Shown piece by piece: positions 5,653-30,953 of a stretch of 46,044 nt of DNA (its first letter is position 1; every line of letters starts with the position of its first letter). The notes under the pieces are model-generated. The model did not search any database. It was not told the DNA's origin and saw only the letters and a program-made list of their open reading frames with translations. The translations under genes and the position numbers were made by a program. The DNA is from Nitrospira bacterium HGW-Nitrospira-1. Lineage in GTDB: Bacteria > Nitrospirota > Thermodesulfovibrionia > Thermodesulfovibrionales > UBA6898. The stretch is taken from assembly GCA_002839535.1 (NCBI GenBank), contig PGYF01000001.1, positions 2,352 through 48,395 on the forward strand, given 5' to 3'.

Positions 5653-5694
5653 ATCACCTTCTTACCGGTTCATGGGTAGTAAGGCCTCCTGTAT

Positions 5695-8185: not shown

Positions 8186-8187
8186 AA

Positions 8188-8430: not shown

Positions 8431-8447
8431 TTCCGTCTCAGGTGATA

Positions 8448-9518
8448 TTATAACCGGCTTTTTCTTAAGCAGATAACCGCGCTTTCAGCCGAACAATTAT
8501 ATCCAATAGAACGTATTAAATCAATTCCGGCAGGTCTGCTCACATCGACCAGATTGACGTTGTGCGGGTTCTCAAGTATTGGACCGGCATATTGCATCTG
8601 TTTTTTTATCATCAGGGCTCCTGCCGCGCAATTAAAGGCACTGCCGGTCATGAGGCTTCCAAATAAAGGCGAATAAGCGGCAACAGGGACTGTTGGGGAA
8701 AGCGCTTTAAGATATGCGGTCCCGTCAATGGTACCATCGGAATCAATAAGGTCAATGTCTGACGCTTCATTAGGCCCAAGTCCTTCGTTAAAAGCAATAT
8801 CGTCTATTCTGCAATAGGCCTTTTCCGGCGACTTCCAGGAGACGACAAAGAAGACACTTCCCTCCCCAGGGACCGGAGGTGATGTTGGGGAGAAATGAAA
8901 AGGCCTCACCTTGCCGTCTGTTGCTGTGCCCAGTTTTCCGTCAAAGATATATCTCATGACCTCCCCGCACTCGTCCGCCACACCCACAAGTACAGAGTCA
9001 CAGCGGCCATCAAGGAGCCACACCTGCGCAAGCTGAAGGGCGCTTTGGAAAGGGAAAGAGAACCGCGTAACTGTCAGGGCCGGGCCGGTTATATCCAGTG
9101 CAGAAGTAATATAGGAGACAGCCGCGTTATGCACAGAATTCGAAAATATTGTGGGAGATACCTGGGCTTCACCGTAATCAATAATATTATCAAGAAAATC
9201 GAATGTGGTCTGATGCGCGCCGAAGGCAGTAGATAAAATTATACCGGTCCTGTTTTTGTTAATATCAACTCCGCTATCCTTGATTGCATCAGATGCTGCC
9301 AGGACAGCCATTTTGCTCAGCTTGTCGGCCCTGCGCATTTTTTTCAGCAGGACCTTGTCTGCTATGTCCCCATTGTTCACTGCATAGACAGGCAATCTCT
9401 TTTGTATGCGGGGAATATCATATTCCACCGGCTGCTGCCAACCCTGCTTCAGCGCATCTTCATAACGCCCGATACCTCTGCCGCCGCTGAATATTATCCC
9501 TATGCCGAGCAGATTCAT
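8448..9518 (-). CDS. Chain-length-factor-like ketosynthase homologue (no active-site Cys)
   Basis: 356-aa thiolase-fold-like ORF directly downstream of a KS. STAFGAHQTT sits where a KS has xACSS, so the catalytic Cys is absent. Confidence 0.7.
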   Translation of the reverse strand: MNLLGIGIIFSGGRGIGRYEDALKQGWQQPVEYDIPRIQKRLPVYAVNNGDIADKVLLKKMRRADKLSKMAVLAASDAIKDSGVDINKNRTGIILSTAFGAHQTTFDFLDNIIDYGEAQVSPTIFSNSVHNAAVSYITSALDITGPALTVTRFSFPFQSALQLAQVWLLDGRCDSVLVGVADECGEVMRYIFDGKLGTATDGKVRPFHFSPTSPPVPGEGSVFFVVSWKSPEKAYCRIDDIAFNEGLGPNEASDIDLIDSDGTIDGTAYLKALSPTVPVAAYSPLFGSLMTGSAFNCAAGALMIKKQMQYAGPILENPHNVNLVDVSRPAGIDLIRSIGYNCSAESAVICLRKSRL

Positions 9519-9521
9519 TTT

Positions 9522-10691
9522 CTACCCTCTCCCCAATAAAAGCGCTGCGTTGTTGCCGCCAAAGGCAAGGGATGTTGATACCGCATATCTGCCTTTGATT
9601 CTGGTTTCTTCCTTTACCGGCGTAATGGGGATATCATCATCCTTATTCCTGAACCCTGGGCTGGAAGGTATCCATCCCTCGCTCAGGCCGGCTGCTGTAA
9701 AGGCGGCCTCAAGCCCACCTGCAGCGCCAAGGGTATGCCCTGTAAACCCCTTTGTCGATAACACCTTAAGGTCAGGCCCGAACATTCTTCCCAGCACCTT
9801 GCCCTCAACCAGATCATTATCTGTTGTCCCTGTTCCATGGGCGTTGACAAAACATATTTCACCCGGCCCTATACCTGCCTCTGCTAGGGCTTTATTTATA
9901 GAGGCCTCCAGCCCTGCGCCGTCAGGTCTGGGCGCTGTGAGGTGATAGGCATCAGCTGATGCGCCATAGCCCAAAATACAGAGATCTGAAGACTTGCCCC
10001 TCAGCTTGGCGGAAGCCTCTGTCTCAAGTATCAGGATGCCAGCGCCCTCGCCCAGATTCAGTCCCCTGCGGTCCCGGTCAAAAGGTGAACACAGGGACTG
10101 ATTGACTATACCGAGGGAGCTGAAACCGCAAAGGGGAATGAGGCTCAATTCATCAGCGCCTCCTGCAACCGCAATATCGCAAAGCCCTGTTTTCAGCCAC
10201 GAAAAAGCCATGCCGATCGCATCAGTCCCTGAGGAGCAGGCGTTCACTACAGTCAGGGCAGGGCCTCTGGCGCTGATCTTACGGGCGATGAATTCCGCAA
10301 TGTTCCCCTTGATATATCTGTCCACAACTTCCATGGGGGCGTTGCCGCTTTGCCTGTAGGAGCGGTAAAACTCCAGGTCATTTAGCTGGCTTGCCACTGT
10401 CGTGCCAATGCTTACGCCGACGCGCAGCCCGGTGAGATCGCCAAGCGAGGTGCTGTCCATGGCCTCGTCAAGCGCGCAGAGCGCAAGGCTGAGAGTCCTG
10501 CTTTTCTCCACTATAAAACCGGCGGGTATCTGCCTGACCTCAAAAACCGGACATTCCAAAGAGGTAGTGAAAAGCGAGACAGGCCCAGCGTTTCTATCTA
10601 CTCTTTTGAATGAATCAAGCGTCACGGAAAGACCCCTGCCGGCAGCAGATATCACGCCAAGTCCGGTAATCAGAACCTCAGAATTTTTCAT
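9522..10691 (-). CDS. Beta-ketoacyl-ACP synthase (KS, FabF/FabB-like)
   Basis: 389 aa. The Cys-His-His triad motifs VVNACSSGTDAIG, NAHGTGT and GHTLGAAG are present. Confidence 0.9.
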   Translation of the reverse strand: MKNSEVLITGLGVISAAGRGLSVTLDSFKRVDRNAGPVSLFTTSLECPVFEVRQIPAGFIVEKSRTLSLALCALDEAMDSTSLGDLTGLRVGVSIGTTVASQLNDLEFYRSYRQSGNAPMEVVDRYIKGNIAEFIARKISARGPALTVVNACSSGTDAIGMAFSWLKTGLCDIAVAGGADELSLIPLCGFSSLGIVNQSLCSPFDRDRRGLNLGEGAGILILETEASAKLRGKSSDLCILGYGASADAYHLTAPRPDGAGLEASINKALAEAGIGPGEICFVNAHGTGTTDNDLVEGKVLGRMFGPDLKVLSTKGFTGHTLGAAGGLEAAFTAAGLSEGWIPSSPGFRNKDDDIPITPVKEETRIKGRYAVSTSLAFGGNNAALLLGRG

Positions 10692-10703: not shown

Positions 10704-11633
10704 TCACTCCTCACTCCTCACTTTATATATATCCAGCCCCTTATCAAGCGTTACAATCCTCATACCAGGATGTCTGGAACGCGCATATTCTATAAGTTCT
10801 GTAAGGGCCTCTTTTTCATTATATAGTATTTCCTCAAGATGACAGGTTGCCTTGCCCGATTGTCCGGTAATTGTATCGCCGGCATGTGGGGGCGCTGACA
10901 AAGGCACGAAATAAAACCAGTCAAAGAGTTTCTTGGTGTATCTTCCCCTTGCGCCGGATGGGCTGAAAAGAAGCGTTTCTCCCTGCTGAAAGACGCCGTC
11001 CCTTTGAGACACTTTTACTTTCACAGCGATATTATGCAGGTAAAGGATCAGCCATTTTCTTTCTGCGCCCGCCCTATCGATAAGCGCCTTCATCTTATCC
11101 ACATTATGGCTGAACGAGTATGATTTCAGTTCGTATCTCTCCGGAACAGCCGGGGTCAGCATGCTTCGGCCTCCCCTTCCGGACCGGTAGTATCTGCCCG
11201 CCAGTCCTCTGACAATGGCGTTGTTTTTATTATACGGGTAGACCAGATTATTTACCCTGAGCCCCCAGCCTTCGAGCGCCGCCTTTGACACAGATAATTC
11301 AGATTCAATCTGATCAGCATTCAAACTATTCAGGTCAGGATGCGACACAGTATGGCTCATTATCTCAAAGCCGTCACGCTGAAGCTCCAGTAGCTGTGAG
11401 ACAGTCAGATAATTTTTTGTATTTATCCAGTCAGTCACAACAGCGAAGCTTGCCGCCACCCCCTGTTTTTTAAACACCTCTCTCGCGACAAGATAGTCCG
11501 TATCGTTTCCATCGTCAAAGACAAAGCTGAGGAGGGGCGCTGGTCCGCTGTCCATGGAAGGACCCTTTCTGACACTGCCGCTGCATGACGATATCAGCAA
11601 AACAGCTATAACAAAGGTTATAAATTTCTTCAT
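10704..11633 (-). CDS. Polysaccharide deacetylase (NodB/CE4) family lipoprotein
   Basis: Lipobox LLISSC at the N-terminus. NodB motifs FVFDDGNDTDY and MSHTVSHP. Confidence 0.8.
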   Translation of the reverse strand: MKKFITFVIAVLLISSCSGSVRKGPSMDSGPAPLLSFVFDDGNDTDYLVAREVFKKQGVAASFAVVTDWINTKNYLTVSQLLELQRDGFEIMSHTVSHPDLNSLNADQIESELSVSKAALEGWGLRVNNLVYPYNKNNAIVRGLAGRYYRSGRGGRSMLTPAVPERYELKSYSFSHNVDKMKALIDRAGAERKWLILYLHNIAVKVKVSQRDGVFQQGETLLFSPSGARGRYTKKLFDWFYFVPLSAPPHAGDTITGQSGKATCHLEEILYNEKEALTELIEYARSRHPGMRIVTLDKGLDIYKVRSEE

Positions 11634-13066: not shown

Positions 13067-13360
13067 TTAAATCCGGCCTTTCATATTCTCATAGACATGG
13101 TTTGCGAGCGTATCTATGGAATAAAAAATCTCTTTTCCTTTGTTCATGTCCTTTACTTCGATGCCGAAGTTGCGCTGCAAAAGCACGACTATTTCTACGG
13201 CATCAAGAGAATCGAGGCCAAGACCTTCACCGAATAAAATTTCATCGTCTTTGATGTCTTCAGGATTAATATCTTCGAGTGACAGGTCCCTTACAAGCAT
13301 CTCCTTTAAATCCTTCCTCAAGCGTGCCAATTCTTCCTCTTTGGTTTTTTCCATCATCAC
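13067..13360 (-). CDS. Acyl carrier protein (ACP-2)
   Basis: 97 aa, LGLDSLDAVEIVV motif. Confidence 0.85.
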   Translation of the reverse strand: MMMEKTKEEELARLRKDLKEMLVRDLSLEDINPEDIKDDEILFGEGLGLDSLDAVEIVVLLQRNFGIEVKDMNKGKEIFYSIDTLANHVYENMKGRI

Positions 13361-13388: not shown

Positions 13389-14153
13389 CTAACTCTTCCC
13401 TTCCCACAGATCTCCAAATACAAACCACTGAAACGGATACCGGGCAGCATAGGCAACTACCGGACACTTTGCAGCTGCCGCAATACTGAAGGCCCCGTAG
13501 GGAAGGCCCACCTTGTCACCCATTAAAACTGCATCCATAAAATTCCGGCCATAGCTGCGGTCTCCCATAATGGAGACGATGCAACCCTGGTCTATAGCGT
13601 TCATAATTTCAACAGCGCCTCCAAGGAAACCATCAGAAGAAATAATCCTGATCTTTCCCTTTTCACTATCGATATTGAGGGTCTCCTTCACTGCGGCGTT
13701 ATCTTCTGGCCGCATCACCAGATAAACCGTTCTATCTAATTTTTCAAGCGCTGTCATGGCCATCTGCCAGTTGCCGACATGAGCGGTCAGCAGTATAATA
13801 CCCTTCCGGCTCCCGCTCAAAAGCGCATTAAGTTTATCATATCCGTAAAGTTCGATGTCAAAGCCGCCCAAGCCTGAAATAAGATAGTAACGGTCTATAA
13901 GATTTTTCCCCTGATTAATAAATATCCGGTAGACCCCTGCGAGCCTGCGGATTGCATTGTATCTCCTGAAGCGCCTTTTGATATAGGCCATACTGGAGGC
14001 CACAGCAAGCCGGTCGAAGATCAGGTAATAGAGCCCGACAAAATACAACAGACCATATGCGCCGGAAAGTCCGAAGGTTTTGAGGCTGACTTTAAAGATT
14101 GCCATCCCCAGTCTGTTCCCCCTCTTTTTTATTTTCTCTTCTTTACTCCTCAT
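13389..14153 (-). CDS. LpxL/HtrB-like lysophospholipid / lipid A acyltransferase (ApeD-like)
   Basis: N-terminal TM segment, then LLTAHVGNWQMA (the H-x-GNW-E/Q motif of the lauroyl acyltransferase family). The start is uncertain (ATG 14153 or 14105). Confidence 0.7.
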   Translation of the reverse strand: MRSKEEKIKKRGNRLGMAIFKVSLKTFGLSGAYGLLYFVGLYYLIFDRLAVASSMAYIKRRFRRYNAIRRLAGVYRIFINQGKNLIDRYYLISGLGGFDIELYGYDKLNALLSGSRKGIILLTAHVGNWQMAMTALEKLDRTVYLVMRPEDNAAVKETLNIDSEKGKIRIISSDGFLGGAVEIMNAIDQGCIVSIMGDRSYGRNFMDAVLMGDKVGLPYGAFSIAAAAKCPVVAYAARYPFQWFVFGDLWEGKS

Positions 14154-14170: not shown

Positions 14171-15418
14171 TCACGCATTACGCTTTACTGCCGTTGATTT
14201 CCGAAAGACAGAGGCGATAAGATATACAGCTCCACCCACCAAAACAGAGGCTATCGGCGCCACGATCAGGGAGCCCAGAAACCATTCTAAAAGACGGTCG
14301 GAGAACTGTCTGAAGACCGTGGCAAAAGAAATATCTGAGAGCCAATGCCCCCAGCGCAGGAAATAACCGACCTCAATACAGAGGGCAGGGACAAAGGGAG
14401 GCATACAGATATGCTGAGCATTGACCGCGACAACTTTATTCAGCCGCAAACGATTAGACACATACAGGATCACAAGCGTATGGGCAAAAAGCAGAGGCAG
14501 CGCCCCCAAAAAAACCCCCCCGGCAGCGGCAGAGGCGAGTCCACCCGGAGTGACGTTTTCCTTTAATAACATTTTGATGAACTTCCCTGGGTGGCGCAGC
14601 AGGGTCAGTTTATTGTCTTTCCTGACAGAGACAAGCCTTTTGTGGGGGAAAGGCAGGAGCCGTCTTCCCACAAGCATGGCATGTGTATGCGATAAACGCA
14701 GATTATCCAGAAAAGGTCTGAAACTCGACACCCTTTTCTGAGGCGCGGGATAGTAAACACTGATCAGCACTGTTCGCAGGGCAAGACCTGCCCAGGCTGC
14801 CCTGGCCAGCGCCTCTGCCTCAAAATCATAATGCGCGCCCCTGAACTTCATCTGGTTGAGATATTGAAGCGGATAGGCCCGGAACCCGCTCTGACAATCA
14901 TCGACATACATGCCGGTCTCGACCCGGAGCCAGAAATTTGCAAACCGTCTGCCGAACCGGCTTTTTCCAGGCACATTGTCAGTATCAAAATTTCTGCTGC
15001 CAATAATGATGGCAGGGTCTTTGTCAATAAGCAGTGGAAGAAAATTTTTGATGTCCTCAGGCTTGTGCTGCCCGTCACCGTCTATGGTTATCATCCACGT
15101 CCCGCCCCTGGACGTTATATATTCAGCAGCAGTCAGTATCGCGCGTCCCTTTCCCAGGTTCTTATCGTGCCTCAATACAACGACCTTTGCATCAGACAGG
15201 AGCGCCCGGAGGTCAGCATCCGTGCTGCCGTCGTCGACAACCACAACATTCCTCAGGACAGAACAACAGCCTGCAACAACGTCTTTCACAGTGGCCCTGT
15301 TGTTATAGACAGGAACAACGCACCAGATACAGTCTGTTTGGTTATTGCCTTGCAACACGCCGCTCCCTTTTTTTTGCCTTTGCGCCCGGTATAAGCATGT
15401 CCCACAGTGTGCCTGCAT
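14171..15418 (-). CDS. Family 2 glycosyltransferase with C-terminal membrane domain (ApeJ-like)
   Basis: VVPVYNN...VVVDDGSTDA and ITIDGDGQH (DxD) motifs, with hydrophobic C-terminal segments. The true start may be GTG 15358 or TTG 15355, which would reduce the 77-nt overlap with the upstream gene. Confidence 0.8.
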   Translation of the reverse strand: MQAHCGTCLYRAQRQKKGSGVLQGNNQTDCIWCVVPVYNNRATVKDVVAGCCSVLRNVVVVDDGSTDADLRALLSDAKVVVLRHDKNLGKGRAILTAAEYITSRGGTWMITIDGDGQHKPEDIKNFLPLLIDKDPAIIIGSRNFDTDNVPGKSRFGRRFANFWLRVETGMYVDDCQSGFRAYPLQYLNQMKFRGAHYDFEAEALARAAWAGLALRTVLISVYYPAPQKRVSSFRPFLDNLRLSHTHAMLVGRRLLPFPHKRLVSVRKDNKLTLLRHPGKFIKMLLKENVTPGGLASAAAGGVFLGALPLLFAHTLVILYVSNRLRLNKVVAVNAQHICMPPFVPALCIEVGYFLRWGHWLSDISFATVFRQFSDRLLEWFLGSLIVAPIASVLVGGAVYLIASVFRKSTAVKRNA

Positions 15419-16715
15419 AGCCCAGCTTATGGAGCATACGGAGGCTGTTGTCCACCTTGTCCGGAGGGAATATACAGTGCCTGCTATTAGAAAAGGCCTT
15501 GGTCAGGGTCTCTTCGAGCCATTTTCTTTCGACCATCGGCGACAGATAGTAAACCGGCTGCAGCATTCCGTTTTCCGGAGAGAGGACTTTCTCTTTCAGC
15601 GCAATGCGCGCGAGGGTGGTATTGGGAAGGATCCTGATGCCCATAAATATAAAAGAGACACATTTCTTGAGTGCCTTAATATTCTCTATGCCTTCAAGTA
15701 CCGTCTCCTGCGTCTCTCCGGGACCTCCGAACATAAAATAATGTGAGGTCGCAATACCGAAGCTGCTGAAGATGTCGTTACACTCAATCACATTTTTAAA
15801 TGAAAATCTCTTGCCCAGCCCTCTCAGTGTAATGTCACAGGCAGCATCGGAACCTATCTCTACGGCAATGAGGCCGGTCGCTTTCATCAGCCCGACGATT
15901 TCATCATTCAGCCCCTCGGGCTTGAAAAAACCTGTCCACGGGATATTGATGTTTCGCCTCCTCATCTCTTCGAGCACCTCCAGATACGCCCCTTCAGCAT
16001 CGTTGAACACGGAATCAATAAAGAAAATATATTTGGCCTTATATTGGTCGCGCAGGAGTTCAATATCATTGACAACGGCACGGACATCCCTGGTGCGGAT
16101 ACTGGAGCCTTCCAACACAGGGTAGGAACAGTAGACGCATTTTTGCGTGCACCCGCGTTTTGTCTGGATCGAGGCAATATTGCCGCTGTGAAGATAATAC
16201 TCCATCAACTTTTCGTCATATCTGGCAGAGACGATCTCAGTCCCCGAAAGCCCGATCTCAGGCCCAATCAGCCTTTCTTCCGGATAGATTCCCCTGGCGG
16301 CATTCTCCGCAAACCTGACCATCAGCATTTCCCCTTCTCCGACAACGCCGTAGTCAGCGCCGGTCTCAAGCAGAATCAAATCAGGGATGAGCGAAAAGCC
16401 CGCGCCCCCGAGTATGACCTTCGCCTCAGAGACCTCTTTGGCCCTTATCACAATGTCCTTGACGATTCCTATGTAATATTGCTCATTCATGAGATTGACG
16501 TTATCGATATTCCGGACTGAAATGCCGATCAATTGCGGGCCGAAACTCTCAATCTCCTGTGCAAGCGCCTCAAGGGAACTGTTCTGCTCAAGGAAATCAA
16601 ACTGCCGGACCTCATGCCCTGCCCCGGCCAGCGCAGAGGCTATCATGCTGACGCCGAGGGGGTAAACCGGATAGGGGGAAACAGTCACATTTGAGGATAT
16701 CAGGAGTATCTTCAT
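15342..16715 (-). CDS. B12-binding (class B) radical SAM protein
   Basis: 457 aa. N-terminal MKILLISSN...PLGVSMIASAL...LGGAGFS B12-binding-like region, then QTKRGCTQKCVYC. Confidence 0.85.
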   Translation of the reverse strand: MKILLISSNVTVSPYPVYPLGVSMIASALAGAGHEVRQFDFLEQNSSLEALAQEIESFGPQLIGISVRNIDNVNLMNEQYYIGIVKDIVIRAKEVSEAKVILGGAGFSLIPDLILLETGADYGVVGEGEMLMVRFAENAARGIYPEERLIGPEIGLSGTEIVSARYDEKLMEYYLHSGNIASIQTKRGCTQKCVYCSYPVLEGSSIRTRDVRAVVNDIELLRDQYKAKYIFFIDSVFNDAEGAYLEVLEEMRRRNINIPWTGFFKPEGLNDEIVGLMKATGLIAVEIGSDAACDITLRGLGKRFSFKNVIECNDIFSSFGIATSHYFMFGGPGETQETVLEGIENIKALKKCVSFIFMGIRILPNTTLARIALKEKVLSPENGMLQPVYYLSPMVERKWLEETLTKAFSNSRHCIFPPDKVDNSLRMLHKLGYAGTLWDMLIPGAKAKKRERRVARQ

Positions 16716-17983
16716 CTTGTCTGCTCCTTTTTTTTGTCTCCCTTCCAGCTTCTGCCTGCAAGCCGCTGCCGATGATATGTGCCGCTCTCCTTTTCCTTTT
16801 CAAGTACCTTCATGAAGAGCTGGGCCATCTTTATTTCCTGGCTGCAACTGCCGTAAAAAGTGTCCCATGCGTAATAATACATCTCCTGTAATTTTTCAGC
16901 GCTCATCAGCGCGGGCTGAAAGACCACATCGCCGCCGGTATACCTGCGCCAGTCATTATGGAGGATTCTGCCTGCCGCTTCCAGGTCGGCCCTAATGGGA
17001 GTGTGGGGAAATGGGGTCAGTATGGTAAACTCGGCAAGGTCAAGGTTGATTTCAAGGAGAAAATCCACAAGCCGTTTTATATAATCTTCGTCGTGGTCAT
17101 CCATGCCAAGAATAATCGTACCTTCGACGCCTATGCCGCGCTCCTGCAACCGCTTCACCCGTCTTCTTATGTGGTCGGAGGTGTCGAAGATCGCCTGGTA
17201 CACATACCAGCAACCTGCCTCTGCCGCCAGGTCCAGGATCTCGTCATCATCCTTGATAGGATGAGAGATCCACTTTTTCTTAAGAGGTATAAGGGCGCGG
17301 AACAAGGTTTTTTCCCACTCGTCATTCTGGGCCATTGAATTGTCCACAAAGAAAAGACGGTTATTGTCAATACCCTGAAGCTCACTGACGACCGACTCTA
17401 TCTCTCTTGGTCTGAACTGCCGTCCACCCAAAAAAGGCGTACAGCACGGGAAACAATTGAACCTGCACCCCCTGGAGGCATGAATCAGGTCAACCATCTG
17501 CACCCCCCGATAGTTATAAAGATCACGCTTCAGGATGCTCCTTCGGGCAGGCCCTATCAGACGAGTATCTGGGAAATCCAACAGGTAGTTGTAGACCTTC
17601 CTGAGTTTATTGTTCCGCACATCCTCTATCACAGCACCGAACCTGCCCTCTGCTTCACCCAGAAACACGGAATCCGCATGCTCAAGCGTCTCCTCAGAAT
17701 GTAGCATCGTGCCTATTCCCCCAAAGATTACCGGCACACCCAAGCCCCTGTATATATCTGCGATCTCCCAGCCCCTCGGTATCTGGCAGGTGAGCATGGC
17801 TGATATGGCTACCAGGTCAACCTTTTCATCAAAATTCAGCTCCTCCACATTCTCGTCGCAGAAAGAAAGCTCTACGTCTTCCGGCACAGCTGCCGCAAAA
17901 CAGACCGGCCCGTGGGGTGGGAGATGGAACTCTGTCTGTCTGCTTAATTTCGGCCATTTGGGGTAAATAAGTTTAATTTTCAC
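16712..17983 (-). CDS. B12-binding (class B) radical SAM protein
   Basis: 423 aa. N-terminal Rossmann-like region (VDLVAISAM...PVIFGGIG), then HASRGCRFNCFPC (CX3CX2C). Confidence 0.8.
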   Translation of the reverse strand: MKIKLIYPKWPKLSRQTEFHLPPHGPVCFAAAVPEDVELSFCDENVEELNFDEKVDLVAISAMLTCQIPRGWEIADIYRGLGVPVIFGGIGTMLHSEETLEHADSVFLGEAEGRFGAVIEDVRNNKLRKVYNYLLDFPDTRLIGPARRSILKRDLYNYRGVQMVDLIHASRGCRFNCFPCCTPFLGGRQFRPREIESVVSELQGIDNNRLFFVDNSMAQNDEWEKTLFRALIPLKKKWISHPIKDDDEILDLAAEAGCWYVYQAIFDTSDHIRRRVKRLQERGIGVEGTIILGMDDHDEDYIKRLVDFLLEINLDLAEFTILTPFPHTPIRADLEAAGRILHNDWRRYTGGDVVFQPALMSAEKLQEMYYYAWDTFYGSCSQEIKMAQLFMKVLEKEKESGTYHRQRLAGRSWKGDKKKEQTR

Positions 17984-18657
17984 TTTGGATGTTTCCCTTT
18001 CTTTATCAATAAAAATTCTTCTGCCATTTCACGCAGGCTGCCCCCTTTTTCGATTACAGGCAGGGCTTCCGAAACATCGCACAACACCTGCTGCCCCAGC
18101 GCCGGTTCCTTCACTAAAACAATATATGCAGCCTGATCCTCCGTGTTCATCCCGGCCAGTACAGCCTGGGTCTCGCCAAGCATCAGCATTTCAGAGGCGG
18201 CCCTTACGACCGGCAGCAAAGAGGTCTGACCTGAACTCATATAAAATACAGGTCCCTGCAGGCCAAAATGTATCGCGGCCTCGCCAAGCGGGCTTGACGG
18301 AAGGGTATAAAGAAAAAGATTGCCCCGCGACAATTTCCTTCCGCTGTCTATATAGTCACGAAAATAATCAATGTCCGCCTGAAGAGAACCGTCTGCGTTC
18401 GTGCCGATAAGACCCATGTCTTTTTTCCGGTTGCTGTCATAAGCCTCTCCCGCGTCCTTCAGTGCAAGGGCAACAGCGTAACAGACAAGTTTTGAGACCT
18501 CATCAAGCCGTCCGAAATTCTTAAAGGTATAGGAAAATATATCCGTTCGTGAGAGCCCGTCAAAGGAGGTGAAATCCTTATAGCTGACAGGCATATTCTG
18601 CCTGACGCATATATATTCCTCTTTATTTATCCATCCCATGCCTCTAATAGCAATCAT
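17980..18657 (-). CDS. Short KS-N-terminal-like protein (ApeC-type chain length factor)
   Basis: 225 aa, 4-nt overlap with the preceding KS. The thiolase N-terminal-like sequence has no catalytic Cys motif, and the size and position match the ApeC partner of ApeO. Confidence 0.65.
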   Translation of the reverse strand: MIAIRGMGWINKEEYICVRQNMPVSYKDFTSFDGLSRTDIFSYTFKNFGRLDEVSKLVCYAVALALKDAGEAYDSNRKKDMGLIGTNADGSLQADIDYFRDYIDSGRKLSRGNLFLYTLPSSPLGEAAIHFGLQGPVFYMSSGQTSLLPVVRAASEMLMLGETQAVLAGMNTEDQAAYIVLVKEPALGQQVLCDVSEALPVIEKGGSLREMAEEFLLIKKGKHPK

Positions 18658-19772
18658 GCCAGCGCAAGGGCGGAATTGATGCCGCCAAAACCCGCATTAG
18701 TCATCAGCGCCACGGAATTTTTTTGGATGAGACGATACTCAGTAGACACCCATCCTTCTGCCTCAGTATCCGCTTCTTTAAGATTCACAGTTGGAGGAAT
18801 CTTCCCCTCTCTGAGTACCTTTAGCGCGATTATCATCTCGACAAGCCCTGCAGCTCCCATAGTGTGACCTATGCCGCCTTTTATGGAATAGACAGGTATT
18901 TTTTTATCTTTGAATACAGAGTTAAACGCCCTCATTTCCATGGCGTCATTATAGACCGTACCTGTTCCATGGGCCGAAATAAAGCCGACCTCGCTCTCGC
19001 TTGCCCGCGCTGAGGACAATGCCTTTCCTATGGCCATAATCAGCCCTTCACTCTGGCGGGAAGGTCCGGTCATGTGATTGGCGTCATCGCTCAACCCCCA
19101 GCCAAGGACTTCACCGAGGGGCTCCCGCTTCTCTTTCCCTGCCCTCTGTTCACTCATTAGTAACACAAATGCTGCCGCCTCTCCGAGACTCAAGCCGCTT
19201 CTGTTTTTGTCAAAAGGCATGGCAGAAATCTTTTCAAGCGCCATAAGAGAAGAAAATCCTGAATAGACAAACTCCGTCACGCTGTCACAGGCCACGACCA
19301 AAACGCAGTCGCTTCGGCCGCTCCGTATCATCGCAGCAGCCCTCGCTATGCCGACTGCGGATGAGGAGCAGGCGGCCGAGATAAGGGTCCCTTTGGTATT
19401 GACTCCTGCAAGCAGAGCGACCTTTTCAAGAAAGGCTGCCTGGCTGTTTTCGAACATGTGCTTCTGCCCCTGGAGTATCTTCTTCTCAAGAAGGTCTATC
19501 TCCCCTTTTGTCGTGGCGACTATAAGGTCGGCATCAGCAGGTATGGGTGCGGATTTTCCAAATAATGCAGTCAGCATCTGCATGACCAACGAATCTTTTT
19601 GATGATATTTCAGACCCTCTATTGTCGCCGCGTAATTGGACTGAAAGGCGCTCGTGTCAAATCTGTTCAGCTTCGAAATGGCAGTCTGACCGGCAAAGAG
19701 ATTGTCCCGGCAGGCATCAGTGCCCAGTCCGTAGGGCGTAAGCATTTCAGAGGAGACCGCCACGACTCTCAT
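18654..19772 (-). CDS. Beta-ketoacyl-ACP synthase (KS, ApeO-like)
   Basis: Motifs ISAACSSSAVG, SAHGTGT and GHTMGAAG. The start at ATG 19772 forms an ATGA overlap with the thioesterase stop and is preferred over the ORF-track start at 19814. Confidence 0.9.
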   Translation of the reverse strand: MRVVAVSSEMLTPYGLGTDACRDNLFAGQTAISKLNRFDTSAFQSNYAATIEGLKYHQKDSLVMQMLTALFGKSAPIPADADLIVATTKGEIDLLEKKILQGQKHMFENSQAAFLEKVALLAGVNTKGTLISAACSSSAVGIARAAAMIRSGRSDCVLVVACDSVTEFVYSGFSSLMALEKISAMPFDKNRSGLSLGEAAAFVLLMSEQRAGKEKREPLGEVLGWGLSDDANHMTGPSRQSEGLIMAIGKALSSARASESEVGFISAHGTGTVYNDAMEMRAFNSVFKDKKIPVYSIKGGIGHTMGAAGLVEMIIALKVLREGKIPPTVNLKEADTEAEGWVSTEYRLIQKNSVALMTNAGFGGINSALALA

Positions 19773-20254
19773 GCCCTGGGATGAAATTCGCCTGTCTTCC
19801 ATCGTTGCCGGCACCTCTCCAGTAATGCGGGAGAGACTATGCAGACCTCGCCGCTTTCTGCTTCAGTCAATAATTGGACGGTATATCCTGTTGCAGCAAG
19901 CGAACCGTCCTGTTTGTAAAGGCCGAACTCAGTATTGAGGCGGGCGCCCTCATGCCAGATCAGGGAGGCCCTGCTTCTAAACTCCTCGGCAAGACGGAGG
20001 GACTGGTAGTAGTCCACATGAAATTCAACAATCGGCGCCCGCAGGCCTGCCTCATGAAAGTCCTTGTATGAAAGTCCGCATATCCTGCCCAACTCCTCGG
20101 CAGCCTCCTCGAAGTACAGGGAATACCTTCCATGCCAGACAATACCCATGGCGTCAATCTCACTGAAATGCACCCGCCTCCAGACCTCTGCAACAACAGG
20201 CGCAGGCAGATCTTCGCCTCTTTCAAAATAGGTCTTTCTTTTCCTGTTTCTCAT
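19769..20254 (-). CDS. 4HBT/YbgC-type acyl-CoA/ACP thioesterase (ApeK-like)
   Basis: 161 aa. VHFSEIDAMGIVWHGRYSLYFEEA is typical of the hot-dog 4HBT family. Confidence 0.8.
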   Translation of the reverse strand: MRNRKRKTYFERGEDLPAPVVAEVWRRVHFSEIDAMGIVWHGRYSLYFEEAAEELGRICGLSYKDFHEAGLRAPIVEFHVDYYQSLRLAEEFRSRASLIWHEGARLNTEFGLYKQDGSLAATGYTVQLLTEAESGEVCIVSPALLERCRQRWKTGEFHPRA

Positions 20255-20631
20255 ATTTTCTTTTCCTGTATCAGCCCGCGTAATTTCAATTCCGCAACCG
20301 CCTGTCCAGCCCTACTGACAGAGGCCTTCACGACAAATGCTTCAGGTCTGTCATCTGCCCCAGAGCAGACGCAGAGGATTTCTTCAGACGGTAAAACCGG
20401 CGAAAAAAACTTCGCTGATATAATCTCTTTCAGCAAAAAGGCCTTGCCTGCTTTTTCGTACATTGAGACAACGCACTGTATCTGACACACGCCAGGCAGT
20501 ATCTTTTCAGATGGGAAATGTCCCTGAAAGCCGACAAACTCCTCAGGAAAGGTGAAGCACGCCTTCAATACACCAGCTGCCGAGGACTCCAAAGCCGTCA
20601 TATATTTCTCAACTTCTTTTTTGATGCTCAA
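20251..20631 (-). CDS. Hot-dog 3-hydroxyacyl-ACP dehydratase (ApeI/FabZ-like)
   Basis: 126 aa, with the FQGHFPSEKILPGV FabA/FabZ-type motif. Confidence 0.7.
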   Translation of the reverse strand: MSIKKEVEKYMTALESSAAGVLKACFTFPEEFVGFQGHFPSEKILPGVCQIQCVVSMYEKAGKAFLLKEIISAKFFSPVLPSEEILCVCSGADDRPEAFVVKASVSRAGQAVAELKLRGLIQEKKI

Positions 20632-21293
20632 TCCGAGACTTCCTTTAATCTTATGATCAATCTGTAGCCATACAGGTAATTCTTCAAAATCGTACCTCCG
20701 GGATATATTTTTCCGTCCCTGTTAAGATATTCGTAAAAAGAAACGCGCCACACAGGGCCTCCCTTCTCATAATATGTTTTTTCAGTCAGGTATTGGTCCG
20801 GTCCAGAAAAAACATATTCCGCAATGCCTTCCCCCTCCTGCTGCCTGAATATTACAGAGAATTTCTTCCTGTTGATTTCAGCCTCTTTGGAGGGGACCAG
20901 ATCAAAATAGACCCGTTTGATGTCTTCTCCTGCCATCTTTCCAAAATTGCCCTTTGCAGTAAATTCCGGCAGGGCAAAGAGGGTATTTATGCTGTCCTTA
21001 TCAATGGACAACTCGAAAAGTTTCACTCCCATCTGGTTTATAGATACAAGGTTGCAGGTCCTCTCAGCAGTATCAACATCAACAAAGCCTATGCCGGAAA
21101 AGGTCTTCCAATTATACTCAAAGACAAGGGTGTTCAGCAATAGGAAGCGCTCCGGAATACTCGCTTGAAACCGCTCCCTTACCATAGAGGGATCGACTGA
21201 GGAATAAGACTCATCAAGCGACTTCTTAAAAGGAATGCCCTCGCAGCCGATCATGAGGGCCAGCAGGCACAGAACGACTGCCGGCCGCTTCAT
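20628..21293 (-). CDS. Lipoprotein of unknown function (position of the DUF3261-type APE-cluster lipoprotein)
   Basis: Lipobox LALMIGC. About 220 aa, located between the MMPL exporter and the dehydratase as in APE clusters. The family assignment is by context only. Confidence 0.55.
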   Translation of the reverse strand: MKRPAVVLCLLALMIGCEGIPFKKSLDESYSSVDPSMVRERFQASIPERFLLLNTLVFEYNWKTFSGIGFVDVDTAERTCNLVSINQMGVKLFELSIDKDSINTLFALPEFTAKGNFGKMAGEDIKRVYFDLVPSKEAEINRKKFSVIFRQQEGEGIAEYVFSGPDQYLTEKTYYEKGGPVWRVSFYEYLNRDGKIYPGGTILKNYLYGYRLIIRLKEVSD

Positions 21294-23677
21294 GCGTCGC
21301 CTCCCTGTCGTTTCCGTGTTGAGAGCATACTACAAAACGAAGGCACCACAAACATGGCGGAAAGGTATCCCGAAGACATGCATATCACCATTGCCAGACC
21401 CGTAGAAAAAAAGGCCGGATGTTTGGCAAAAAGCAGTGCCCCTGCGCCAATAATATTGGTGGCGGCAGATAAAGACACGACAAACGCGGTCCCCATAGTC
21501 AGATTATTCCGGTAATCATATGTCCTGCCTATACCGTAGTCCACAATAACGCCGCTGGTAATGATCGCAGCCACGATGTTCACCACATTGAGAGGAAAGC
21601 CGAAGAACGACATAAGTCCGGCGAGCCATACCATTCCCGTTAAAACAGGTATAAGGGCTATGACGGTTTCTTTGATATTTCTGAAAAATATGTAAGTCAG
21701 AACAATATTAAATAAGATCGCAAGAGGGACAAGAAACTTCGCCTCCCTGGAGGTGAAACTGGATATGGATTCGGACAGGGCACGGCCTGAGACAACAAAT
21801 GTTCCTGGATGGACTCTGCTCAAGTCCGACATGGTTTTTACAAACTCTTTTTCATCAGGGAAAAAGGACAGTATCCTGCAGCCCTCCGGCCTTTGCTGCA
21901 CAAACCGCTCTTTTACATTCGCCATGAACTCGTTATCAGCGCTGCTAAAGTCAGCGACTTTAAATAAGTTGTCAAAAAATGGGGAAAAGGCATCTTTGGA
22001 AAAGTCATGCTTCGGCGATTCACTTTTAATAAGACCTCTAAGCCTCGCCTCCCTTCCCTGTCTCCAGAAGTTGTTCCAGTTGTCGACATTCTTTCTCCTT
22101 GTTTCCTCAGAAGACCAGAACATAGACAGGCTCAAAAAACGGTCTGTAGCAGCAACTTCTGCGACCCTTTGAAATATGGCGTCATTAGTCTTCATCGCCT
22201 CCTCAAAGGTCTTGCCCGTGACCACGAAAATCGCCTGGCCGGTATTTCCTCCCCAGACCGCATGAAAGTTTTTTTCTGCATTTACTACTTCAGGTCCGCT
22301 GCCATCGAGTTGTTTAATGTCGCTTTCAATCCTGACATTGAAAGACAGAACTATCGCAGCTAAGGTCAGGACAGCCCAGAGCCCGATACTTAAATTTCTG
22401 AGCCACGGGTTTCTTTCAAACCTGTCAACTATCCCCTGCGGTTTGATCTCGGGATATTTCTTCCATTGCAGGGTTTGGGGCAGAATAAAGAGCGCAAAAA
22501 AGAGAGAGATTACAATACACAGTATCGAAAAAAGGGCCAGTTGGTGGTATCCATGGATTTTGGAGAAGTAAAGCACATAAAATCCGAACACCGAAGTTAT
22601 CGCGTCAACGCACAAAAGCTTCGCAAGTTTCAGTGTCCGGGATGGGTCAACGCCTTTTCTGGATGAAACATATACCATGAGGCCGTAATCAACAGATATG
22701 CCTGCAATCGCAGTTCCGAACCCGATAACCAGATAGGAGAGCTTCCCGGCAAAAAACCAGGAAATATTGATAGCCAGAATGACCGCAAGAAGCGGAATAA
22801 TATATACAAAGACAACTCTCATGTCCCTGAATACAGCAAAAAAAAGCAGCAGAAAAACAATTGAAACCATGATCGAAAGCAGTCTGATATCACGCTTGAT
22901 CACGGTTTCGTTGCTGACAGTATGCCTGTGCCCGCTTACAACATCGGCAGAGACATAGCCAGGCAAACTCCCGAGCTTTTCGTAAAGCGCAGTCAAAAGC
23001 CTTTTGGAGTTTGGAGCGTCCGTCATCTTCACAGGCGTTTGAATTATCATCATGGCATGGCGGCCGTCGCTGCTGATAAAATGACCGTCCTCGACAGCAA
23101 CATCATATCCCATTGAAGCCGGAAGGGCCTTTAACTTATCCATAAGAAGGAAGTTTATGCCGAGAGGGTCTGCCCGAAACATCGGAGTCATAAAAACACT
23201 CTCAGGTTTCAAAGACTGTATATATATCCTCTTTAATTTTTCGGAAACTGAGGCAGTGTTTATCCGGAGGTCAATAGCGGTCAGGTCTTTTTCAGTAAGT
23301 ATCTGCGGGGCATAATTCAAAAAAAAACCGTCCATCACATTCGCAACCGAAAAACCGGTTGTCACCTTGCCAAATAATGGAGGAGAGAGGGAGGCAGCCA
23401 GCTGGTCGACTGCGTTAAACAGGTCCTTCTTGCCTGCTTCCTCGGATGTGAGTGAAAGAGAGACAACGATCTTGTCGGAGAGATTCGAGTCCCGCAGAAA
23501 ACTCATGCTGCGGTCAATGTCCCTGTCAGGGGGGAGCATCATATCAACATTACCGTCATACTGTACAAATAAAAGCCCGGCGACTGCTGCCAGTGTCAAA
23601 AATATTACGCCCACAAGCACAAACTTCCTGTTGCCCTTCATAAAACCGGAAAGCAGGTCAAAGTACCTGTCAAACAC
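21290..23677 (-). CDS. MMPL/RND-superfamily lipid exporter (ApeM-like)
   Basis: 795 aa. Two blocks of about 5-6 hydrophobic helices, each preceded by a large soluble loop, which is typical MMPL topology. Confidence 0.8.
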   Translation of the reverse strand: MFDRYFDLLSGFMKGNRKFVLVGVIFLTLAAVAGLLFVQYDGNVDMMLPPDRDIDRSMSFLRDSNLSDKIVVSLSLTSEEAGKKDLFNAVDQLAASLSPPLFGKVTTGFSVANVMDGFFLNYAPQILTEKDLTAIDLRINTASVSEKLKRIYIQSLKPESVFMTPMFRADPLGINFLLMDKLKALPASMGYDVAVEDGHFISSDGRHAMMIIQTPVKMTDAPNSKRLLTALYEKLGSLPGYVSADVVSGHRHTVSNETVIKRDIRLLSIMVSIVFLLLFFAVFRDMRVVFVYIIPLLAVILAINISWFFAGKLSYLVIGFGTAIAGISVDYGLMVYVSSRKGVDPSRTLKLAKLLCVDAITSVFGFYVLYFSKIHGYHQLALFSILCIVISLFFALFILPQTLQWKKYPEIKPQGIVDRFERNPWLRNLSIGLWAVLTLAAIVLSFNVRIESDIKQLDGSGPEVVNAEKNFHAVWGGNTGQAIFVVTGKTFEEAMKTNDAIFQRVAEVAATDRFLSLSMFWSSEETRRKNVDNWNNFWRQGREARLRGLIKSESPKHDFSKDAFSPFFDNLFKVADFSSADNEFMANVKERFVQQRPEGCRILSFFPDEKEFVKTMSDLSRVHPGTFVVSGRALSESISSFTSREAKFLVPLAILFNIVLTYIFFRNIKETVIALIPVLTGMVWLAGLMSFFGFPLNVVNIVAAIITSGVIVDYGIGRTYDYRNNLTMGTAFVVSLSAATNIIGAGALLFAKHPAFFSTGLAMVICMSSGYLSAMFVVPSFCSMLSTRKRQGGDA

Positions 23678-24383
23678 GCCTTACCTCAAAAAAGCTGTTT
23701 TCAACAGGCGCGTCCAGCAGGGTATTGGAAAAGTCCAGCGTGGTCGTATCGCCGCTCATCTCATGAATTTTTATCTTCTTCAGATATTTTTCATCATCCC
23801 TGAATGTTATCGTGATGCTCCTGATCATCTTCCGCGCAATGTTCTTCTCATTCGGAACAAACTCAATAATCAGGGGATGCTGCTGCAACACGCTGACAGT
23901 GTTGTCGGCCATAAGAGCGCCGTATTCCCCTGAAAACCATACAGACAACTGATTGACGACATTCTTGAATATCGGATTTTTTGAAAGAGAGAGCTCCTGT
24001 ACCTGATTGGTATCTTCGTCCCACTGCCGGATCGCCTTATCAGTGATGACCACTGAATATTTAACCGGCTTGTCTACATGCCAGGCCAGCCTGTTGGGCT
24101 TTTGCATATAGATACGGCCCCGGAGCACGATCTTTTTCTTGAACATCGCCAGGTCTTTCTCCTGGACAAAGTCCGTCTTCAGGCTCTTGAAGCCGGAAAC
24201 CTTTTCCCCTATTGTGCGAAGCAGTTCCTGTATTTCAACTTCTTTGGCAGATAGCCCATTCTTTCCATCCGGGCCGCCCTTTGTCTCGCCGCCGGCCCGG
24301 GGGGCGATGACCGCTGGAGAAAACAGGGAAAGCACAATCAAAAGTACGATAGTTTTTTTCATTTCCATTTTATTTTTCACCAT
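23670..24383 (-). CDS. LolA-like lipoprotein-carrier-fold periplasmic protein (ApeL-like)
   Basis: Signal peptide (MKKTIVLLIVLSLFSPAVIA) and a F-x-Q-E-K motif region typical of LolA-like proteins. The likely start is ATG 24362-24368 rather than 24383. Confidence 0.65.
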   Translation of the reverse strand: MVKNKMEMKKTIVLLIVLSLFSPAVIAPRAGGETKGGPDGKNGLSAKEVEIQELLRTIGEKVSGFKSLKTDFVQEKDLAMFKKKIVLRGRIYMQKPNRLAWHVDKPVKYSVVITDKAIRQWDEDTNQVQELSLSKNPIFKNVVNQLSVWFSGEYGALMADNTVSVLQQHPLIIEFVPNEKNIARKMIRSITITFRDDEKYLKKIKIHEMSGDTTTLDFSNTLLDAPVENSFFEVRRV

Positions 24384-27885: not shown

Positions 27886-27888
27886 CCG

Positions 27889-28155: not shown

Positions 28156-28177
28156 TCTTTCACCTCATTGATTAATT

Positions 28178-30897: not shown

Positions 30898-30953
30898 TCC
30901 ACTTAATAACCGGAAGGGGCCGCAGACAATGGACCGGAAAGGTCCAAAACAAC

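Follow-up and report, generated by a model that had tools for sequence, protein, structure and literature searches.

A 46,044-nucleotide stretch of contig PGYF01000001.1 of Nitrospira bacterium HGW-Nitrospira-1, referred to here at its full length as the window, carries a single long operon on its minus strand, running from about position 31688 down to 2814 (approximately 29 kb, 28 genes in Pfam and NCBIfam scans), in which an aryl-polyene/flexirubin-like set of lipid genes harbours three different cobalamin (B12)-type radical S-adenosylmethionine (SAM) genes, encoding proteins of 423, 457 and 470 amino acids (aa). We interpret these as anciently diverged subfamilies of class B radical SAM enzymes that are core, co-inherited parts of a type II polyketide synthase/fatty acid synthase (FAS)-like lipid operon and that remodel a chain bound to acyl carrier protein (ACP), a reading that we hold to be about evenly poised between right and wrong. 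The evidence brought to bear on it consists of family membership, fold, motifs, gene coupling and co-inheritance. The operon merges the machinery of aryl polyene (APE) and flexirubin synthesis with genes known from the 'ladderane-type' clusters of Kuenenia and Desulfotalea, namely the radical SAM and phytoene-desaturase-like ones; it is of a type already catalogued, both as 'ladderane-like' clusters and through the curated family TIGR04072, and widespread in anaerobes, and the trio of the window is a further member of it.

Three deeply diverged class-B-type radical SAM proteins

The original prediction, made from the sequence alone, had described three open reading frames, at 16712-17983 (423 aa), 15342-16715 (457 aa) and 2814-4226 (470 aa), with an N-terminal B12-binding layout and a cysteine motif of radical SAM type. 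All three lie at those positions on the minus strand, and their translations contain the CX3CX2C motifs that had been named, CRFNCFPC (C173-C180) in the 423-aa protein, CTQKCVYC (C189-C196) in the 457-aa protein and CPYQCSYC (C208-C215) in the 470-aa protein. The N-terminal layout was borne out as well: measured against a Pfam gathering score of 32.1 bits, the B12-binding domain PF02310 scores 66.6 bits in the 457-aa protein, 72.6 in the 470-aa protein and 34.0 in the 423-aa protein, a narrow pass, while the Radical_SAM domain PF04055 (gathering score 29.5 bits) reaches 59.0, 89.6 and 28.3 bits, respectively, the last of these just under the gathering score. The cobalamin-domain motifs G/A-x-S/T, GG and GExE, where the meaning of G/A-x-S/T, GG and GE is as given in PMC9204698, are found in all three proteins. 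Structure prediction, which had been proposed as a check, points the same way, with AlphaFold2 (AF2) models and Foldseek searches matching the 457-aa protein to TsrM and the 423-aa protein to AprD4, TsrM and MgmA.

Pairwise identity among the three proteins is only 22-26%, because of which we regard them as old, separate subfamilies and not as recent paralogues. Their earlier description as paralogues, if taken to mean recent duplicates, does not survive this comparison, and the idea of recent paralogues acting iteratively is rejected on the same grounds; of the two modes of tailoring that had been offered together, iterative or regio-distinct, it is the regio-distinct one that better fits three deeply diverged subfamilies. 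The radical SAM genes of the operon had also been undercounted, as there are five and not three, the two that had been missed being a HemN-like gene (11684-13054) and a gene of the SPASM type (24370-25842).

Gene coupling and co-inheritance

The 423-aa and 457-aa genes lie, as had been predicted, between a true ketosynthase (KS)/chain-length factor (CLF) pair and a glycosyltransferase (GT) gene of the GT2-DUF2062 type. They share the start/stop sequence ATGA at 16712-16715, an overlap that had already been noticed and is real, and further four-base overlaps join the KS gene to the CLF gene (18654-18657) and the CLF gene to the 423-aa gene (17980-17983), so that these ATGA and GTGA overlaps amount to translational coupling around the B12-type pair. 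The three ketosynthases of the operon (KS386, KS389 and KS408, numbered by length) have the Cys/His/His motifs, and neither of the two CLFs has any of them. On the other side of the pair, the longest open reading frame of the GT2-DUF2062 gene, 14171-15418, runs 77 bases into the 457-aa gene; in the gene calls for identical contigs it starts at the equivalent of 15358, giving a protein of 395 aa and an overlap of 17 bases.

Each of the three proteins has thousands of homologues. Among the best 120 of each, at 63-95% identity, those that carry a taxon name are almost all from metagenome-assembled genomes (MAGs) of Nitrospirae, Nitrospirota or Thermodesulfovibrionia, and the best match is the locus L003, of an 'uncultured Nitrospirae bacterium' MAG, at 88-95% identity. 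For a wider comparison 91 related loci, denoted here by L numbers, were used, 80 of which are metagenome loci at 37-75% identity retrieved with a family-wide alignment of the 457-type protein. Genes were counted by searching every locus by tblastn with all proteins of the window, 'long' denoting the 31 loci that extend 5 kb or more to either side, and adjacency was counted only in loci with room for the neighbour, namely 68 upstream and 67 downstream of the 457-type gene.

A 423-type gene stands directly upstream of the 457-type gene in 57 of 68 loci, and in every one of these 57 pairs the 423-type protein is the better conserved of the two (median identities 67.7% vs 44.2%). Directly downstream, a GT gene follows in 35 of 67 loci, as in the window, and a 470-type gene in another arrangement, found in 23 of 67, that places three B12-type radical SAM genes in tandem. 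All three types also occur on the same contigs in several MAGs. The APE/flexirubin-like embedding that had been proposed for these genes extends across the sampled loci: the long loci have KS and CLF genes without exception (31/31 each) and ACP genes in 29/31, together with the lipid-A-type acyltransferase (30/31), thioesterase (28/31), LolA or RND protein (28/31), SPASM enzyme (27/31) and 470-type protein (17/31), with the HemN-like protein (5/31) and deacetylase (6/31) being the least frequent. Taken together, the adjacency counts and the presence of KS, CLF and ACP genes across loci indicate that the 423/457/470 trio is a co-inherited set tied to the KS/CLF/ACP genes.

In L005 the synteny of the whole operon is kept although the identity of the 457-aa protein has dropped to about 70-71%. 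The identities to this locus (75% for the 423-aa, 71% for the 457-aa and 75% for the HemN-like protein, most other genes being at 45-65%) make the radical SAM proteins the best conserved of the cluster and show strong purifying selection on them. The order of the three genes before the 470-aa gene (a protein of unknown function, an FAD_oxidored flavoprotein and an acyl-CoA ligase) is kept in L005, L010 and L011. The placing of the third B12-type gene at the end of the operon was confirmed, the 470-aa gene being the final operon gene in the window and also in L010 and L011. In the lineage of the window this 470-type gene appears simply to have moved to the operon end, beside the acyl-CoA ligase gene. 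L010 and L011 have in addition a fourth B12-type radical SAM gene (478 aa, at 7144-8580 in both) between the flavoprotein and ligase genes, whose top match is the hopanoid C-3 methylase HpnR at 226.6 bits, below cutoff; the window has at that position only a 42-bp gap (5653-5694).

Two features of the gene arrangements may be added. The tandem 423/457/470 triplet before a GT gene is seen in L045, L048, L050, L055, L056, L060, L061, L066, L069 and others, and is confined to loci whose 457-type protein is 37-44% identical to that of the window. A 457-type gene without a 423-type gene directly upstream is seen in L004, L027, L034, L035, L064, L072 and L076, where a CLF, thioesterase or dehydratase gene precedes it except in L004; this last, a high-GC locus of Deltaproteobacteria, has by tblastn a solo 457-type gene with KS, CLF, ACP and GT genes on the opposite strand.

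Layout of the operon

In the order of transcription, the operon consists of the following genes.

25829..31688, minus strand: operon head, comprising a FabG/FlxB-like ketoreductase (KR), a CrtI/phytoene-desaturase-like flavoprotein, a FabF-like KS, an ACP, a PlsC-type acyltransferase and a FlxY/PaaK-like ligase (Pfam/NCBIfam)
24370..25842, minus strand: radical SAM/SPASM protein, an ApeP-like hotdog region at its C terminus (Pfam; L005 orthologue with PF22817)
19769..24383, minus strand: APE-type export and processing genes, in the order LolA-like, RND/MMPL-like (HpnN-like), DUF3261, ApeI-like dehydratase, 4HBT thioesterase (Pfam/NCBIfam)
18654..19814, minus strand: KS (ApeO-like, KS386, 386 aa) with Cys/His/His motifs (profile and motif check)
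17980..18657, minus strand: CLF-like KS homologue (ApeC-like, CLF225, 225 aa) without active-site motifs, with four-base overlaps on both sides
16712..17983, minus strand: B12-type radical SAM protein of 423 aa, orphan subfamily, CRFNCFPC at residues 173-180 (Pfam, motifs, AF2 and Foldseek)
15342..16715, minus strand: B12-type radical SAM protein of 457 aa, TIGR04072 member, CTQKCVYC at residues 189-196, TsrM-like G64-x-S66-x-R68
14171..15358, minus strand: GT2 glycosyltransferase fused to DUF2062, given from the likelier start at 15358 (Pfam and gene calls)
13389..14153, minus strand: lipid-A-type acyltransferase homologue (Pfam)
13067..13360, minus strand: ACP, 97 aa
11684..13054, minus strand: HemN-like (class C) radical SAM protein, accessory, low GC (Pfam Radical_SAM and HemN_C)
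10704..11633, minus strand: polysaccharide-deacetylase-family protein
8188..10691, minus strand: second set of KS (9522-10691), CLF (8448-9518) and ACP (8188-8430)
4207..8185, minus strand: terminal module of a protein of unknown function (369 aa, 7076-8185), an FAD_oxidored flavoprotein (PF12831, 5695-6906) and an acyl-CoA/AMP ligase (4207-5652, overlapping the 470-aa gene)
2814..4226, minus strand: B12-type radical SAM protein of 470 aa, HpnJ/BchE/P-methylase-like subfamily, final operon gene, CPYQCSYC at residues 208-215

Three proteins of the operon have flexirubin families as their best match, with FlxY the best family match of the PaaK-like ligase (448.3 bits, below the cutoff of 520), FlxB that of the KR (296.5, below 340) and LolA2_flexi that of the LolA-like protein (113.4, below 125). 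Pfam scans of the operon detected neither a class I SAM methyltransferase analogous to ApeB nor, as suppliers of a finished aryl starter, a chorismate lyase or an ammonia lyase; an enoyl reductase was likewise not detected. From the FlxY/PaaK-like ligase and the lack of a detected enoyl reductase, an aryl (4-hydroxyphenyl-type) starter and a polyene product are possibly to be expected.

Alternatively, the substrate of the B12-type enzymes could be an (aromatic) carboxylic acid, free or bound to CoA, that the FlxY-like or a FadD-like ligase has yet to load. TsrM and BzaD methylate free aromatic small molecules (PMC9204698), the operon has two adenylating ligases, one of them overlapping the 470-aa gene, and neither lyase was detected as a source of an aryl starter. 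Such synthesis of a starter unit is nevertheless decidedly improbable: in most loci the 423/457 pair sits between the KS/CLF and the GT, acyltransferase and ACP genes and not by the ligases, and the aryl starter is itself unproven for this operon.

The 457-aa enzyme

The 457-aa protein is a member of TIGR04072 (rSAM_ladder_B12), scoring 623.6 bits against an equivalog cutoff of 360, with residues 2-442 aligned to positions 1-442 of the 443 in the profile; it is indistinguishable from that family, whose lipid-cluster context it shares. The 423-aa and 470-aa proteins, at 46.7 and 113.3 bits, are not members. The family is named for ladderane-type FAS clusters reported in 2009 in Kuenenia and Desulfotalea (PMC2649909), and its product name, 'lipid biosynthesis B12-binding/radical SAM protein', is borne by thousands of homologues of the 457-aa protein; a literature search found no paper naming TIGR04072 or this product name. 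Among cultured organisms, Desulfomarina profundi, Desulfovibrio inopinatus and Flammeovirga have members named by PGAP, as do MAGs of Acidobacteriota/Aminicenantes, Planctomycetota, Lentisphaeria and Elusimicrobiota. Flammeovirga is a cultured aerobic marine member of the Bacteroidota, so that TIGR04072 is not confined to strict anaerobes. No anammox genus was found among 30 distant TIGR04072-type representatives, of which the first ten bore no taxon name.

The next families, BzaD (TIGR04385, 212 bits against a cutoff of 450) and TsrM (TIGR04428, 125.1 bits against 500), are matched below their cutoffs. TsrM is also the top PDB sequence match of the 457-aa protein (5e-31) and the top Foldseek match of its AF2 model (pLDDT 77, pTM 0.79), with TM 0.78-0.81 and E 8e-26. 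By sequence and predicted structure, then, no characterised enzymes are nearer to the 457-aa enzyme than TsrM (PDB 6WTE) and BzaD, from which it differs in being encoded in a context of lipid biosynthesis and not of thiopeptide or cobamide biosynthesis, and, compared with TsrM, in being shorter by about 110 residues.

What the 457-aa enzyme has in common with TsrM is a Gly-x-Ser/Thr-x-Arg motif, G64-I-S66-V-R68 being aligned by HMMER with G65-V-T67-V-R69. R68 is invariant in 30 close homologues, and conservation of both S66 and R68 reaches 90% or more across the family-wide alignment, which spans 33-91% identity. In TsrM this residue, Arg69, lies beneath the cobalt without coordinating it and is thought to favour cycling between Co(I) and methyl-Co(III) (PMC9204698). 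The two proteins part at a second site, where D271-S272-E273 of TsrM is aligned with D234-S235-V236, V236 being again invariant in the 30 close homologues. Glu273, the glutamate of the 'GGE' motif, serves as a ligand to the unique iron in TsrM's cluster and renders that enzyme non-radical (PMC9204698). With no iron-ligating glutamate in the place of Val236, the unique iron of the 457-aa enzyme would be open to SAM, which suggests that formation of the 5'-deoxyadenosyl radical is retained, unlike in TsrM. Since the TsrM arginine is kept while Glu273 is replaced by Val236, the 457-aa enzyme looks like a hybrid, its cobalamin pocket being TsrM-like and its cluster canonical and accessible to SAM. 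A non-radical mechanism of the TsrM type was considered for it and rejected, the iron-ligating glutamate being absent.

The 423-aa enzyme

The partner of the 457-aa enzyme has no dedicated curated family, its top NCBIfam match reaching 53.8 bits. The residues A59-x-S61, G88-G89, G109-E-A-E112 and C173/C177/C180/C181 are nevertheless invariant in 32 of its homologues. Its AF2 model is of modest confidence (pLDDT 69), and the Foldseek matches to AprD4, TsrM and MgmA, a glutamine methylase of methyl-coenzyme M reductase, extend over both domains (E 2e-14 to 2e-13); a two-domain class-B-like fold is thus supported for the predicted structure. Judged by the comparison of loci, the 423-type is the most conserved and constrained protein of the cluster, and its chemistry is not to be read off from homology.

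The 470-aa enzyme

The top NCBIfam matches of the 470-aa protein are HpnJ (TIGR03471, 179.7 bits against a cutoff of 577.6) and BchE (TIGR02026, 164.3 bits against 481.35), aligned over nearly its full length; P-methyltransferases score near these two, and all are two- to three-fold under their cutoffs. The closest solved structure to its radical SAM domain is AprD4 (PDB sequence match, 2e-25). The HpnJ/BchE/P-methyltransferase group and AprD4 are therefore nearest to this enzyme, yet the scores are far under the cutoffs and the gene context is a different one, with no hopanoid, bacteriochlorophyll, phosphonate or aminoglycoside genes detected near the 470-aa gene in Pfam scans of the window.

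Many 470-type homologues bear the automated name 'anaerobic magnesium-protoporphyrin IX monomethyl ester cyclase', and on that basis the radical SAM genes could be taken for mere passengers of the operon, serving a tetrapyrrole, cofactor or peptide pathway. The score against BchE (164 bits vs a cutoff of 481) and the context of KS, CLF and ACP genes led us to reject a BchE-type tetrapyrrole cyclase. The wider idea of an unrelated substrate is close to refuted by the same score, by a KS/CLF/ACP synteny that is invariant over 37-95% identity and by the start/stop overlaps that tie the radical SAM genes to the KS/CLF and GT genes. A link of homologues in other taxa to non-lipid substrates, with no KS/ACP linkage, had been named beforehand as the outcome that would speak against a role in lipid synthesis. 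The nearest characterised homologues do act on non-lipids (TsrM on tryptophan, BzaD on benzimidazole and AprD4 on an aminoglycoside); the KS/ACP neighbourhood is kept across taxa, and for this reason that outcome was not the one observed.

A different role is suggested for the 470-aa enzyme, and possibly for the others, by a parallel with the hopanoid genes, where a glycosyltransferase (HpnI), a deacetylase (HpnK) and a ring-contracting B12-type radical SAM enzyme (HpnJ) go together with HpnN-like RND export. By this analogy the enzyme would act on the sugar added by GT2 and not on the acyl chain. HpnJ is its best NCBIfam match (179.7 bits, nearly full length), the operon encodes both GT2-DUF2062 and a polysaccharide deacetylase, the top NCBIfam match of its RND protein is HpnN, the closest solved structure, AprD4, belongs to an enzyme that modifies a sugar, and the 470-type gene adjoins a GT gene in 23/67 loci. 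We nonetheless find tailoring of the head group improbable, as the HpnJ score is far under 577.6 with BchE and the P-methylases almost equal to it, the deacetylase is present in 6/31 long loci compared with 17/31 for the 470-type, and the window's own 470-aa gene has the acyl-CoA ligase gene, not the GT gene, as its coupled neighbour. HpnK, moreover, belongs to the YdjC family, unlike the deacetylase of the window.

Relation to ladderane-type and aryl polyene clusters

The operon shares with the APE (E. coli/Vibrio Ape) and flexirubin (Flx) systems its KS/CLF proteins, ACPs, KR, ApeI/ApeP-like dehydratases and thioesterase, as well as its acyltransferases of the lysophospholipid acyltransferase type, GT2-DUF2062 and the LolA/MMPL/DUF3261 proteins, although its FlxY, FlxB and LolA2 matches all stay just under their equivalog cutoffs. 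It differs from both in having five radical SAM genes, two flavoproteins and a second KS/CLF/ACP set. We know of no radical SAM enzyme in the described APE (E. coli/Vibrio) and flexirubin pathways, which use a class I methyltransferase, and a literature search on aryl polyenes together with radical SAM or B12 found only surveys of biosynthetic gene clusters (BGCs). The original statement that the trio has no counterpart in these pathways is therefore true in a narrow sense; the novelty that it implied does not stand, since ladderane-type FAS clusters were published in 2009.

In that work, Rattray et al. described FAS-like clusters of Kuenenia stuttgartiensis with SAM-radical enzymes, phytoene-desaturase-like proteins, divergent FabF paralogues, a 'phenylacetyl-CoA ligase' and a polysaccharide-deacetylase-like protein, syntenic in Desulfotalea psychrophila, Geobacter and Pelobacter (PMC2649909). 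Table 2 of Javidpour et al. (2016) lists for kuste3335-3352 a glycosyltransferase, phytoene desaturase, FabZ, ACP, FabG, the adjacent SAM-radical genes kuste3342 and kuste3343, a phenylacetyl-CoA ligase, FabF and non-canonical FabF, ACP and a deacetylase-like protein (PMC4790861). By annotation, which was what we compared and not sequence, kuste3335-3352, kuste3603-3608 and the Desulfotalea cluster have essentially the same gene inventory as the operon of the window. Relative to the Kuenenia clusters the window adds LolA/RND/DUF3261 export, a thioesterase and the SPASM and HemN-like radical SAM genes, and it lacks their class I SAM methylases (kuste3338 and kuste3347); its host is a member of the Nitrospirota and not an anammox planctomycete.

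This kinship underlies the main rival to a methylating role for the B12-type enzymes, namely that hydrogen abstraction from an ACP-bound polyene by one or more of the three leads to ring closure or C-C cross-linking, giving carbocycles with no net methyl transfer. The products would be cyclobutanes, cyclopropanes, larger rings or tail-to-tail coupled chains, and the chemistry a non-anammox relative of that proposed for ladderanes. The name of TIGR04072 and the cluster type itself originate from ladderane candidates (PMC2649909), the phytoene-desaturase-like flavoprotein, KS/CLF and B12-type radical SAM genes mirror Cluster I of anammox bacteria (10.64898/2026.05.19.726425), and the FabF pair of anammox bacteria has recently been shown to be a KS/CLF-like heterodimer (bioRxiv 10.64898/2026.05.19.726425). 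Within the window, Val236 would keep the unique iron of the 457-aa enzyme free for genuine radical generation, the best family matches of the 470-aa protein, HpnJ and BchE, are non-methylating, and five radical SAM genes are more than simple methylation would seem to need. Desulfotalea, with a related cluster, however, makes acyclic polyunsaturated hydrocarbons and no ladderanes (PMC2649909), and 'ladderane' clusters called by antiSMASH are reported from many non-anammox phyla that lack ladderanes, their function being unknown (PMC9902471). The 457-aa enzyme has methylases as its nearest characterised relatives, and no cyclising member of these three subfamilies is known. To our knowledge ladderanes occur only in anammox bacteria. 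On balance we consider ring formation unlikely, if the most serious of the competing explanations.

A proposed mechanism

For substrate, chemistry and order of steps we propose the following. The KS/CLF systems, together with the KR and dehydratases, would build an ACP-bound polyenoyl chain, possibly primed with an aryl group through the FlxY-like ligase, and the class B radical SAM enzymes would then remodel its carbon skeleton while it is held on the carrier. The acyltransferases and the GT would attach the product to a lipid anchor, and the LolA, RND and DUF3261 proteins would export it to the outer membrane. Among the three enzymes, the 457-aa enzyme may carry out a methylcobalamin-dependent C-methylation of an sp2 or allylic carbon, in the aryl head or in the polyene, using a TsrM-like cobalamin environment in which Arg68 would lie under the corrin and a unique iron that would bind SAM since Val236 replaces Glu273. 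The 423-aa enzyme would probably catalyse an adjacent step on the same intermediate, or act in complex with the 457-aa enzyme, and the 470-aa enzyme a third, distinct step.

Methylation specifically is a tentative assignment, which we would not call probable. It is favoured for the 457-aa enzyme because the TsrM arginine is kept, because no class I methyltransferase was detected in the operon, because the extra B12-type enzyme of the relatives in L010 and L011 is HpnR-like, and because the nearest characterised relatives methylate an aromatic sp2 carbon, as BzaD does and as has been described for TsrM (PMC9204698).

A number of points weigh against remodelling of the carrier-bound chain by these enzymes, or against its proposed chemistry. 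Every match to a characterised family is far under its NCBIfam cutoff, so that chemistry is not transferable from the characterised families. For the 423-aa protein, cobalamin binding is indicated by a marginal Pfam score and motifs, the Radical_SAM score is sub-threshold and the model of modest confidence, and AprD4, its best structural match, is not known to use cobalamin. The 457-type gene has no adjacent 423-type gene in 11/68 loci, and the pairing is accordingly frequent, not obligatory. Pfam scans found no genes for cobalamin synthesis or uptake in the 46-kb window, flanks of the operon included, and an Rfam scan of the window found no cobalamin riboswitch or any other RNA family. The link of the window genes to those of Kuenenia and Desulfotalea is one that we infer from the curated family name and the published gene lists, and not from alignment. 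Class B enzymes such as HpnJ, BchE and OxsB, furthermore, carry out ring contraction, cyclisation or dehydration without methyl transfer (PMC9204698), and no radical SAM enzyme of ladderane-type clusters has a demonstrated reaction (PMC10139942, PMC13459092), members of TIGR04072 and of the 423- and 470-type families included.

Should the carrier-bound chain be remodelled as proposed, a bolder extension can be formulated, which is a long shot when taken as a whole. The product of the operon would be an undescribed class of outer-membrane lipid of Nitrospirota and other anaerobes, an ACP-built polyene with a radically remodelled skeleton and thus a relative of ladderanes outside anammox bacteria. 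As parts of the same conjecture, the skeleton would be poly-C-methylated, cyclopropanated or carbocyclised, and the extremely conserved orphan 423-aa enzyme would work with the TsrM-like, iron-open 457-aa enzyme as a two-step or heteromeric catalyst, its chemistry being new to class B enzymes.

Wider significance

The modification of acyl (non-isoprenoid) lipids by radical SAM enzymes has hardly been explored; in a review of 2026, ladderanes and the product of Jaw5 are the sole proposed cases listed (PMC13459092). The biosynthesis of ladderanes has been unsolved since 2002, partly as anammox bacteria lack genetics (PMC10139942). The window opens no new category, and specialists in radical SAM enzymes or anammox lipids would recognise this kind of cluster at once, but the comparative data sharpen the problem posed by ladderane-type clusters. 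They identify the 423/457 pair, which a 470-type gene often joins as the third in tandem, as the conserved catalytic core of a cluster that is very widespread. What is new here are the counts for the 423/457(/470) module, the unnamed 423-type as the most constrained gene, and the pattern of TsrM arginine without TsrM glutamate in the 457-type. The named TIGR04072 members of cultured Desulfomarina profundi, Desulfovibrio inopinatus and Flammeovirga are places where the chemistry could be determined, and Flammeovirga may offer a carrier that is easy to grow. Should the product be a methylated or cyclised polyene lipid, it would be a candidate biomarker for anaerobic Nitrospirota and Desulfobacterota.

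Other radical SAM genes and neighbouring genes

The HemN-like gene has as its top NCBIfam match ChuW/HutW, at 182.6 bits against a cutoff of 400, and its GC content of 0.405 differs from the approximately 0.50 of the remaining operon. The window, L005-L007, L013 and L015 have it intact, L001, L002, L010 and L011 lack it, and in the closest relative, L003, only codons 1-78 are left (13798-14031); where present, it is among the best-conserved genes, at 75-86% identity. It has the appearance of an accessory gene for tailoring that is mobile. In broad class it is the same as the class C radical SAM cyclopropanases and methylases of the Jaw5/C10P type, beside which it is set by description only; the substrate of Jaw5 is an alpha,beta-unsaturated carrier-bound acyl chain (PMC13459092).

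The SPASM protein (490 aa) has a C-terminal part of about 140 aa similar to the hotdog domain of the ApeP dehydratase (weak Pfam match, E 0.0065), and its orthologue in L005 (685-2172) has a precomputed match to PF22817. Such a fusion of a radical SAM-SPASM protein with a dehydratase is unusual. A sixth radical SAM gene of the window encodes a QueE-type 7-carboxy-7-deazaguanine synthase (33629-34267, minus strand, 261 bits, below the cutoff of 300). This gene is unrelated to the lipid operon and stands outside it, with genes for NadA and an SLT transglycosylase in between.

Beyond the operon end, where the downstream genes differ in L010 and L011, a gene for a PagL-like lipid A 3-O-deacylase/outer-membrane beta-barrel protein (2123-2779, plus strand) converges on the operon and may or may not be linked to it. 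On the other side, FabD (malonyl-CoA:ACP transacylase) is encoded directly downstream of electron transfer flavoprotein (ETF) beta and a ferredoxin-domain-fused ETF alpha (39331-42217, minus strand); these genes could supply malonyl-ACP and low-potential electrons close to the cluster, although housekeeping genes intervene. Towards the edge of the window, 43219-44868 holds an open reading frame of 107 aa that covers only the CHC2 zinc-finger region of DnaG, then an HTH_3 repressor-like gene (43719-44351, plus strand) and a gene with a ParE-like toxin domain (44497-44868, plus strand), which together may be a toxin-antitoxin or mobile-element remnant.

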